Virus record (IMG/VR): IMGVR_UViG_2606217110_000012
Span: 1-5,601 of that record
Source of the DNA: a virus
Taxonomy: Duplodnaviria; Heunggongvirae; Uroviricota; Caudoviricetes
Reading direction: 5' to 3' (one strand)
DNA: 5,601 nt
Part shown: piece by piece, positions 1,766-3,270 of the stretch
Position numbering within the stretch: the first letter of the stretch is position 1
Layout: every line of letters starts with the position of its first letter
Notes under the pieces: model-generated
The model's database searches: none
What the model saw: only the letters and a program-made list of their open reading frames with translations
What the model was told of the DNA's origin: nothing
Translations under genes and position numbers: made by a program

Positions 1766-2509
1766 CTAATCTGACGTCACACGCACCATTATACTTACTA
1801 AAGAAAAGTCATCATCAGGTCCGGCTCTCTCTATACGACGCAAAATGCCATTAGAAAACTTCTGACTATTACTCATCGTATTTGATGTAAATCTGGGGCG
1901 TTTTTCCCAAACGTTATGAACCCCATCAGACATGATACACAGATGATATACCCCGTTAATACTAGGTAAATCTTTCCATGTGATAAAATCACAGTCGTAT
2001 TCCATATCAACATTTGAGGCTATAGCCGTCGTTAAGATATTTTTGCCCGGTTTATCCTTCAAATCTCTGGGTTTAAAAATATTCTGATCAATTAGCATCT
2101 GATGCCTGGTATCGTCCTTCGTCAATTGGTATGCTTTCTTCTCTCCAATGCAATACAAACGACAATCACCAATATGACCAATAATAATTCCGCTATCACA
2201 AACATAACAAAACGTAAGTGTAGTAGCAGCTTTATCGAACTCATCATTAACATCAGCTAACGACATAACCTTTCGCTTAACTTCATCAAATACATCCGGA
2301 ACTGTGTCAAAAGATAAGCTTGTCAATGCTGAAAGTTCAGCAATTGCCATTGATGAAGCCTGACTGGCACCAGTGTATGAACCTACACCATCAGCTACGG
2401 CAAATAAGATGCCATCCCCTACAATTTTGGGAGGAAGCAATGAATCTTCGTTGACCCTACCTGGTTCTTTTGGATACGAGAATGATGAAGTCGCTATCAG
2501 CTGAATCAT
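1766..2509 (-). CDS. PP2C-family (PPM) Ser/Thr protein phosphatase
   Basis: 247-aa ORF with PPM motifs: NEDS, FAVADGVGS (metal-binding DGxG), GDCRLY (GDSR-like), MSDGV, DDFSLV. Start ATG 2509..2507 overlaps the kinase stop TGA 2508..2506 (ATGA), preceded by SD AAGGAG. Confidence 0.88.
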   Translation of the reverse strand: MIQLIATSSFSYPKEPGRVNEDSLLPPKIVGDGILFAVADGVGSYTGASQASSMAIAELSALTSLSFDTVPDVFDEVKRKVMSLADVNDEFDKAATTLTFCYVCDSGIIIGHIGDCRLYCIGEKKAYQLTKDDTRHQMLIDQNIFKPRDLKDKPGKNILTTAIASNVDMEYDCDFITWKDLPSINGVYHLCIMSDGVHNVWEKRPRFTSNTMSNSQKFSNGILRRIERAGPDDDFSLVSIMVRVTSD

Positions 2510-3270
2510 GACTCACTCCTTAAAAAAGAATGCACAAAATCAAACGCCACATCATCTATTGTCTGATATCTATCATCTTTATCCATCCTGGTACACTTCG
2601 CTATGATAGGCTTTATTTTTTTATCATCTAAATTTAAGTCCTCAATTAACCGCCCCACCGCATAAACATCAGTCTTAACTGAATACTCGGCATTATATAA
2701 AATCTCGGGAGCCATATATCTTGTACTTCCCATACGGGTACCGATCTCGGTCAATTTAGTGGTATCCCCTTCGGGATTTGTATCTTTTACCAGACCAAAA
2801 TCAGACACCTTGTATGTTCCGTCGCTAAATCGCAAGACATTAAATGGTTTTATATCTCTGTGTAAATAGCCTTTCGCATGGATGTGAGCTACACCATCTA
2901 ATACCATTTTCACTATTGAAATTTTTTGATCTGTTGTAAGAAGGTTGTTCGTTATTTCGTGCTCAAGATCACATTCTGCTTTATCCATAATGAACCATGG
3001 ATTCTCGGCAAACAAATCGCACAAATAAATAGGAACAATATTGCTATGTACGCAATGTGATTGATACACGACCTCCCTTTTAAAACGCCTTCTAAACTGC
3101 TCTATTTGCGCCAAAAGCTCTGGTTTTTCGGGGGCTAAAACCTTTCTAGCATAATCCCCACATTCACCCTTGTTGAGGTTGTAAACCTTAACGTGTTCAA
3201 CAAAGCCAAATGCACCCCTTCCAATCAACTGAATTCGTTTTATAAAGTAATTACCGTGCTGTTCTTCCAT
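2506..3270 (-). CDS. Hanks-type (eukaryotic-like) Ser/Thr protein kinase, minimal catalytic domain
   Basis: Gly-rich loop IGRGAFGFV, beta3 lysine in YARKV, alphaC glutamate in KREV, catalytic loop HRDIKPFN, DFG in SDFGLVK, APE in YMAPE. Start assigned to ATG 3270 (SD GGTGAG, 4-nt spacer), not the track's TTG at 3345, which would read through the upstream terminator hairpin. 255 aa, no extra sensor domain. Confidence 0.88.
   Translation of the reverse strand: MEEQHGNYFIKRIQLIGRGAFGFVEHVKVYNLNKGECGDYARKVLAPEKPELLAQIEQFRRRFKREVVYQSHCVHSNIVPIYLCDLFAENPWFIMDKAECDLEHEITNNLLTTDQKISIVKMVLDGVAHIHAKGYLHRDIKPFNVLRFSDGTYKVSDFGLVKDTNPEGDTTKLTEIGTRMGSTRYMAPEILYNAEYSVKTDVYAVGRLIEDLNLDDKKIKPIIAKCTRMDKDDRYQTIDDVAFDFVHSFLRSES

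Follow-up and report, generated by a model that had tools for sequence, protein, structure and literature searches.

Protein phosphorylation is a newly recognized currency of the conflict between phages and bacteria, one used by Stk2, the Stk kinase of prophage 933W, PD-T4-6, KKP, and the T7 kinase. KKP (PfpC–PfkB–PfkA), found in Pf6 and other prophages, combines a PP2C phosphatase with two Ser/Thr kinases (Guo et al., Nat Commun 2024, PMC11341870). It is a type VII toxin–antitoxin system, with the kinases as toxin and the phosphatase as antitoxin, and it defends against lytic phages (PMC11341870). The system is triggered when a phage protein inhibits the phosphatase, as T4 Gp59 inhibits PfpC, and growth arrest follows; KKP also governs induction of the Pf prophage by phosphorylating the silencer MvaU (PMC11341870). 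The kinase of phage T7 disarms bacterial defenses through broad phosphorylation (PMC13645617). Here we describe a smaller locus, a Hanks-type Ser/Thr kinase gene followed by a PP2C phosphatase gene, in a 5,601-nt stretch of Caudoviricetes DNA (positions 1 to 5,601 of IMG/VR virus record IMGVR_UViG_2606217110_000012). We refer to the whole stretch as the window and to the two genes as the pair; coordinates are those of the window unless they follow a locus label such as L002. The pair has intact catalytic sites under purifying selection, a conserved gene coupling, and the marks of a mobile prophage cassette, and its genomic positions suggest a phosphorylation-based switch that may serve in defense or exclusion.

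Both open reading frames (ORFs) lie where a first-pass annotation of the window had placed them, and profile searches agreed with the enzyme classes it had assigned. The upstream gene (2506-3270, minus strand) encodes a Hanks-type Ser/Thr protein kinase (Pfam Pkinase, 2e-33) and the downstream gene (1766-2509, minus strand, 744 bp) a PPM/PP2C-family protein phosphatase of 247 aa (Pfam PP2C_2, 2e-14). The kinase consists of the catalytic domain only, as annotated, although its length is 254 aa and not the 255 aa first given. Its Pfam matches were limited to Pkinase and PK_Tyr_Ser-Thr, its homologues of 241-284 aa had the same two matches, and RefSeq carries an identical 765-nt kinase gene. A longer kinase ORF from a TTG at 3345 was unsupported, since the homologues all begin at the MEEQ methionine and M1 is invariant.

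We judged the catalytic motifs on alignments of 30 diverse homologues, one alignment per protein. Invariant in the kinase were G17, G19, K43 (of AxK), E66, H137-R138-D139-x-K141-x-x-N144, D157-F158-G159, D201, and R234, and the APE motif was kept in at least 90% of the aligned homologues. The complete Hanks-type catalytic core (PF00069) is present, from the Gly-rich loop and the alphaC glutamate through the subdomain IX Asp and the subdomain XI Arg, and we take the HRDIKPFN motif to be a catalytic loop of the Ser/Thr type. Invariant in the phosphatase were N20, D22, D40-G41-x-G43, H112, G114-D115-x-R117, S194-D195-G196, and D233-D234. These supply the metal-binding aspartates (motifs 1, 2, 8, and 11) and the GDxR of PP2C (PF13672/PF00481), to which the fold also belongs. 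The AlphaFold2 (AF2) models gave the expected folds for the single proteins. The kinase model had a predicted local distance difference test score (pLDDT) of 89.1, with disorder confined to the activation loop (residues 163-177), and resembled PknB, Stk1, and tyrosine kinases at template modeling (TM) scores of 0.7-0.8, PknB and Stk1 being the closest solved structures. The phosphatase model (pLDDT 91.9) resembled PstP, Stp1, tPphA, and PppA at TM 0.75-0.8, the first three being its nearest solved structures. Both enzymes look catalytically competent, as the first-pass annotation had held, with motifs that are invariant or nearly so; closer alignment gave no sign that either is dead. The phosphatase family is compact, with 69 proteins at E <= 1e-30 among 1.84 billion representatives and a core of about 20 clusters.

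To judge from the sequence, the kinase and phosphatase are translationally coupled, by features that are not due to chance. The plus strand reads tcat at 2506-2509, that is, ATGA on the coding strand, so that the kinase TGA and the phosphatase ATG have three bases in common. An AGGAG Shine-Dalgarno sequence (2516-2520) stands six bases before the phosphatase ATG, and the whole element (2506-2520, minus strand) lies within the 3' end of the kinase gene, where the junction on the coding strand reads AGGAGTGAGTCATGA. Of 35 non-redundant loci, 26 had the 4-nt ATGA overlap, among relatives as distant as about 30% identity, and in 33 the two genes either overlapped or were no more than 4 nt apart. 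The first-pass annotation had correctly noted both the overlap and the strong Shine-Dalgarno sequence; its further reading of "stoichiometric" co-expression is more than an ATGA overlap can show.

Alignment to cassette-less sites delimited an inserted cassette of about 1.68 kb (1700-3378, minus strand), which comprises an upstream terminator, a short leader, the kinase, the phosphatase, and a 3' tail. Homology with Escherichia coli CE10 (L002) and strain 167 (L003) was lost at about 3378/3379 and regained at about 1698, and the guanine-cytosine (GC) content was 0.36-0.42 between roughly 1650 and 3400 compared to about 0.50 in the flanks; for the insert as a whole it was 37-40%. Upstream of the cassette is the gene for the late-gene antiterminator Q (PF06323; 3415-4110, minus strand; Pfam Phage_antiter_Q, 5e-84, with RefSeq in agreement). 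The segment just downstream of Q (3379-3414, minus strand) is kept in prophages with and without the cassette and aligned with CE10 and strain 167 up to ...GATATTTTGCCG; going by lambdoid phage organization, it is presumed to be the pR'/Q-utilization region. The CE10 site was empty, with Q followed by a short leader, a terminator, and a small ORF (L002 3348-3560). The same slot in strain 167 held an unrelated two-gene cassette (L003 3509-4540) encoding hypothetical proteins of 265 and 75 aa, neither gene having a Pfam match and the larger having no PADLOC match. The slot just downstream of Q is an interchangeable cargo site in non-Stx E. coli prophages, and it is also the location of stx in Shiga-toxin phages. 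The insertion point lies about 36 nt past the Q stop, and a leader of about 25 nt (ATTTTGTACGCGATGGCAAAGTAAG) present in CE10 and strain 167 has been removed. On the cassette side (3369-3378) the sequence contains TATAGT, with the terminator hairpin directly after.

Terminator-like hairpins stand at both edges of the cassette. The one at the upstream edge (3347-3368, minus strand) is an intrinsic-terminator-like hairpin with an 8-bp stem, 5 GC pairs, and a U-run (RNA fold −14.2 kcal/mol, z −3.3), and it was missing from the empty site of CE10. The other (1668-1699, minus strand; −18.3 kcal/mol, z −5.5), a tR'-like A-run/stem/U-run terminator, is common to the empty site and now lies 3' of the phosphatase; at this hairpin the alignment with CE10 and strain 167 picks up again. 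A 76-nt leader (3271-3346, minus strand) separates the upstream terminator from the kinase ATG; it has a candidate promoter element, TACAAT (about 3292-3297), and GGTGAG as ribosome-binding site. The cassette has the characters of a moron, being an extra segment of deviant base composition between genes that are adjacent in related phages.

The pair was present in 50 of the 5,426 complete E. coli genomes (0.9%), compared to 2,193 (about 40%) for the flanks alone, and in the two host genomes examined (E24377A and ML35) it was in a lambdoid prophage region beside Q. Human isolates, including the enterotoxigenic E. coli (ETEC) strain E24377A, accounted for many of the identical copies in this species. 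Searches at the protein level turned up relatives of both enzymes, the kinases ~250 aa and the PP2Cs ~247 aa long, in Enterobacterales, Vibrio, Aeromonas, Pasteurellaceae, Pseudomonas, Xanthomonas, and Acinetobacter, with kinase and phosphatase matches often from the same contigs. Among 61 family loci of Gammaproteobacteria, taken from IMG/VR and genomes, 60 had the kinase immediately followed by the phosphatase on the same strand, the exception being one that ends at a contig end, and the pairwise divergences of the two proteins were correlated (r = 0.87). Cultured phages also carry the pair, as gp21/gp22 between Q and the lysis genes in Cronobacter phage phiES15 and between the spanin and the small terminase in Escherichia phage Flotzy, and so do IMG/VR proviruses. 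At the nucleotide level the cassette had no match among 50,697 phage records, its relatives there being recognizable at the protein level alone. The scan of genome contigs with the patterns HRD[IL]KPxN[IV]L and YK[VIL]SDFGL[VI] was too generic: one of the 80 listed loci (L010) belonged to the family and the others were ordinary long kinases. We also considered a type III secretion effector kinase of the NleH/OspG type and rejected it on distribution and pairing and without a sequence test, because the family spans prophages of Vibrio, Pseudomonas, and Pasteurellaceae and is always paired with a phosphatase. The low GC content, the empty site in related phages, and the presence in 0.9% of complete genomes uphold the first-pass description of a stand-alone prophage cassette, and the distribution as a whole supports a self-contained unit that moves horizontally.

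Between two E. coli alleles with a nucleotide difference of about 5%, the ratio of nonsynonymous to synonymous substitution (dN/dS) was 0.037 in the kinase gene and 0.12 in the phosphatase gene, and both genes are therefore maintained by selection. Natural disruptions were also found, five of them with a broken kinase and an intact phosphatase (L116, L121, L137, L147, and E. coli 510016). The kinase of strain 510016, one of the 50 carriers, has a 10-bp length difference that leaves an N-terminally truncated protein of 187 aa (L172 1167-1730). The second E. coli allele, from ML35 (L173 2690-2977, 95% identity), has a different downstream junction and has lost the small ORF along with the 5' part of the methyltransferase gene.

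The pair occupies four kinds of position. In at least 12 representative loci it lies after the holin, lysozyme, and Rz genes and before the small terminase. A second group, with the window, Yersinia, phiES15, and others, has it between Q and the lysis genes, beside three unrelated Q families. The third position is immediately 3' of a CI-type repressor gene, co-oriented with it and divergent from cro/cII-like genes (L104, L106, L114, and L118). Lambda has rexAB directly downstream of CI, transcribed in lysogens, and we take these four loci to have the pair in the same place. The remaining positions are scattered, beside N, integrase, or tail genes.

Copies outside prophages have neighbors of other kinds. 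Pseudomonas koreensis has a complete Gabija system (GajA 692 bits, GajB 573 bits) 1.4 kb upstream of the pair (L010 4454-8432), and a transposase fragment on the other side. In Xanthomonas the pair has a SymE toxin on one side and a NACHT/STAND protein on the other. In P. syringae its neighbor is a gene with a SocA_Panacea antitoxin domain, where a P2-like prophage ends, and in P. putida it lies among transposases. Islands of the P. putida type (L007 14357-15880, L008, and L009) carry a conserved 507-aa PNP_UDP_1 protein after the pair; it has a weak PADLOC match to "PN-superfamily effector" (33 bits) and may be an associated defense gene.

All genes of the 5.6-kb window are on the minus strand and together make up the late-regulatory region of a lambdoid prophage. 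Upstream of Q are RusA (4101-4460, minus strand) and a DUF968/HNH-like protein (4473-5519, minus strand). Beyond the cassette is a small conserved ORF (1349-1546, minus strand; 65 aa in RefSeq, WP_000917766) that directly follows Q in cassette-less prophages. It has a weak TrmB-like winged-helix match (E 0.006) and always precedes the methyltransferase, an N6/N4 DNA methyltransferase of the prophage late region (149-1198, minus strand; Pfam N6_N4_Mtase 1e-44, PADLOC MTase_II 534 bits). The last feature is a tRNA (24-99, minus strand) that ARAGORN called Met with anticodon CAT, compared to tRNA-Ile in RefSeq for the E24377A equivalent; the Ile label would suit a tRNA of the ileX/ileZ type, in which modification of the CAT anticodon allows AUA to be read.

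The window sequence was found at 99.9-100% identity in E. coli E24377A, within a prophage between potB and potC in which the methyltransferase is followed by tRNAs, holins, and an endolysin. This prophage (L001 9443-36482) looks partly degraded: its Lom and tail-fibre-assembly genes are partial, and the stretch from the small terminase to the tail fibre has few structural genes. Toxin–antitoxin genes (hokD and relBE-type) and an immunity region of the YdaS/YdaT type are also present.

We favor reading the pair as a two-gene phosphorylation-based switch for defense or exclusion, because KKP is the nearest characterized system with the same ingredients, and from the genomic context we put this at about an even chance (roughly 50%). 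The CI-adjacent loci and the Gabija and NACHT neighbors point to expression in lysogens and to a defensive role. The conservation of the pair as a unit, the selection on both enzymes, the moron characters of the cassette, and the scores of the kinase against PADLOC models of defense kinases also speak for this reading. The first-pass annotation had suggested defense or host takeover, with which the results are compatible on the strength of context.

Under the defense reading, the pair would be a mobile switch of temperate phages that works like a toxin–antitoxin system and shields the lysogen, and hence the prophage, from other phages. The minimal kinase would be the effector: once its activation loop, which has a conserved Thr (T174 or the "GT" Thr), was phosphorylated it would phosphorylate many host proteins, phage proteins, or both, and would stop growth or phage development. 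The PP2C, made from the same mRNA through the stop/start coupling, would constantly strip phosphates from the kinase and its substrates, as an antitoxin would, and leave the uninfected cell unharmed. An infecting phage would then tip the balance, either by inhibiting the phosphatase, as T4 Gp59 does with the PfpC of KKP, or by activating the kinase directly. Direct activation by the infecting phage is reportedly what happens to the 933W Stk and the staphylococcal Stk2. We propose more tentatively that the pair constitutes a distinct minimal family of toxin–antitoxin and abortive-infection systems, without FHA domain, cold-shock domain, or second kinase, that temperate gammaproteobacterial phages shuttle among immunity regions, late-cargo sites, and chromosomal defense islands.

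Several observations weigh against a defense switch. The kinase has no sensor domain of any kind through which infection might be sensed. Its matches to the PADLOC defense-kinase models (mad6 135 bits, PD-T4-6 118 bits, Stk2 96 bits) span the generic kinase domain alone, covering 11-201 of the 327 positions of the PD-T4-6 model and 160-347 of the 500 positions of the Stk2 model, and the phosphatase had no meaningful PADLOC match. The defense-neighbor cases amount to three loci and not to an enrichment in the statistical sense. In the window and at most of the prophage loci the pair shares the orientation of the late operon in which it lies, and the gene upstream is on the same strand in 32 of 37 cases. 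No sigma-70 promoter passed a consensus scan of the kinase leader, 3271-3346, where TACAAT has a poor -35 element; across 1100-3500 the scan gave 6 sites compared to 7.3 expected, none within the kinase leader, and a leader promoter is for that reason only a possibility. Nor was a conserved DNA motif found upstream of the kinase beyond shuffled controls in 30 non-redundant loci. In that search, based on 8-mer enrichment with one mismatch allowed, the best words (GTAAATTT and TAATTTTT) occurred in 14 loci compared to 10-15 in the shuffled AT-rich controls. Finally, the kinase of L142 is intact although the phosphatase beside it is truncated, which argues against strict lethality of the kinase alone. 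L142 is the sole case of its kind, and the skew in the disruptions, five against one, is weakly consistent with the kinase being the costly partner.

The late-operon position and the absence of a promoter match make Q-dependent late expression plausible, and they lead to the main alternative, namely an accessory module of the late lytic cycle expressed from pR' under Q antitermination, as are the stx genes at the same site. The kinase would phosphorylate host proteins late in the lytic cycle of the prophage itself, improving late development or disarming host defenses, and the phosphatase would limit or time that activity. In lambdoid antitermination, the Q-modified polymerase would pass the hairpin upstream of the kinase, which favors such a module. 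So do the loci with the pair within the late operon and co-oriented, both those with the order Q, pair, and lysis genes (the window, L004, L006, L101, L126, L130, and phiES15) and those with the order lysis genes, pair, and terminase (at least 12 plus Flotzy), as well as the 76-nt leader without a promoter passing the consensus scan. Viable phages, phiES15 and Flotzy, carry the pair, and the T7 kinase provides a precedent for phosphorylation that disarms defenses (PMC13645617). However, expression in lysogens is implied by the CI-adjacent loci, which represent at least four diverged lineages, and the pair also occurs outside prophages, with Gabija, NACHT, toxin–antitoxin, and transposase neighbors, where there is no lytic cycle to serve. 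Its own terminator at the 5' edge and its low GC content are more in keeping with an autonomous moron than with an integrated late gene, and a takeover kinase has no obvious need for an obligatorily coupled antagonist. A late lytic role is a serious alternative that we nonetheless think unlikely.

The pair might also act on the phage that carries it or on the host, tuning the lysis–lysogeny balance or host physiology (lysogenic conversion) through a host regulator, with no anti-phage effect. KKP offers a model for this in its control of Pf prophage induction via MvaU phosphorylation (PMC11341870). The location of the pair at prophage regulatory nodes, beside CI, N, or Q, and the many identical copies in human isolates, including ETEC E24377A, would suit such a function. 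Yet the hosts range from Escherichia to Vibrio, Pseudomonas, and Xanthomonas and the phages have three unrelated Q families, and because hosts and Q families are so varied a specific conserved regulatory target is harder to picture. Copies outside phages are in defense-type neighborhoods, and the E24377A prophage appears partly degraded, yet its pair is under purifying selection. We regard a regulatory role of this kind as quite improbable.

A vertically inherited housekeeping Stk/Stp pair or a decaying pseudogene remnant, for which one could cite the generic RefSeq names and the lack of many structural genes in the E24377A prophage, is refuted: only 50 of 5,426 E. coli genomes carry the pair, so it is not a housekeeping one; in E24377A and ML35 it is beside Q in a lambdoid prophage region; housekeeping pairs recovered by the locus scan have their two genes in reverse order and kinases of roughly 580-740 aa; and dN/dS of 0.04-0.12 with invariant catalytic residues excludes decay.

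If the defense switch is real, the pair would be the simplest such system, a bare kinase with a bare phosphatase in 1.5 kb total. If it instead acts in the late cycle of its own phage, the T7 kinase would have a counterpart among temperate phages. The pair is tractable, with clear catalytic residues to mutate and a presence in cultured phages (phiES15 and Flotzy) and E. coli strains. It makes testable how a kinase without a sensor detects infection, whether a phosphatase suffices as antitoxin, and which substrates are lethal.

Compared to the known systems, the Stk of 933W/phi24B is similar in being a eukaryote-like kinase of E. coli lambdoid prophages, located beside the immunity region like the pair in some loci, and it is said to exclude HK97. 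In annotated records it stands as a single gene without a phosphatase beside it, and it is only a distant relative of our kinase (25.7% identity over 68% of the kinase, E 5e-7), an identity that places it in a different family. Lambda NinI (lambda-PP) is a protein phosphatase of the lambdoid nin/Q region, but it is a PPP-family metallophosphatase, not a PP2C, and has no partner kinase. The Stp/Stk pairs of Gram-positive bacteria (PrpC/PrkC, PstP/PknB, and Stp1/Stk1) have the same two folds and are co-transcribed antagonists. Their order is phosphatase then kinase, and the kinases are roughly 580-740 aa (ORF sizes; L029, L078, and L059). Housekeeping Stk kinases have a membrane span and PASTA sensor repeats, and they are core chromosomal genes, not mobile cargo. 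The phage-defense Ser/Thr kinases PD-T4-6 (Vassallo et al. 2022) and Stk2 (Depardieu et al. 2016) are single-gene systems without a phosphatase partner. PD-T4-6 is one ORF of 1311 nt whose 436-aa product has a C-terminal extension of about 150 aa, compared to 254 aa for the kinase of the pair. The validated systems of DefensePredictor were not relevant, the kinase there being of the HipA type and the phosphatases of the metallophosphatase and HAD types.

The first-pass annotation put the locus forward as a candidate for an undescribed system. This does not hold for a prophage kinase and PP2C module in general, given KKP (PMC11341870) and the annotations of phiES15 and Flotzy. Members of the pair have been annotated in genome records since the deposition of phiES15, and the RefSeq names are generic ("serine/threonine-protein kinase" and "PP2C family phosphatase"). 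For the two-gene architecture itself, our search of published work found no study of a kinase-then-PP2C family.

The comparison with KKP, made on its published description, shows both likeness and difference. KKP has three genes in the order phosphatase-kinase-kinase, whereas the pair has two in the order kinase-phosphatase, and a second kinase was found neither in the window nor in 60 related loci. The kinases of KKP bear FHA and cold-shock domains needed for toxicity, and both kinases are required, in contrast to the one bare 254-aa kinase here; FHA had no Pfam match in this kinase and was absent from the neighboring-gene families. The authors of KKP proposed a PfkA-like kinase with a cold-shock domain as its defining feature, and by Pfam our kinase has none. 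KKP genes were selected at 900-1300 bp, and those of the pair are 765 and 744 bp. KKP is found mainly in P2, P4, Mu, and Pf prophages, and the pair mainly in lambdoid late or immunity regions. The pair thus fails the defining features of KKP. It shares with KKP the location on mobile elements, the status of prophage accessory cargo, a Hanks-type Ser/Thr kinase in one operon with a PF13672 PP2C, and Gram-negative hosts that include E. coli. KKP is the closest characterized system and, by analogy, the best functional model for the pair.

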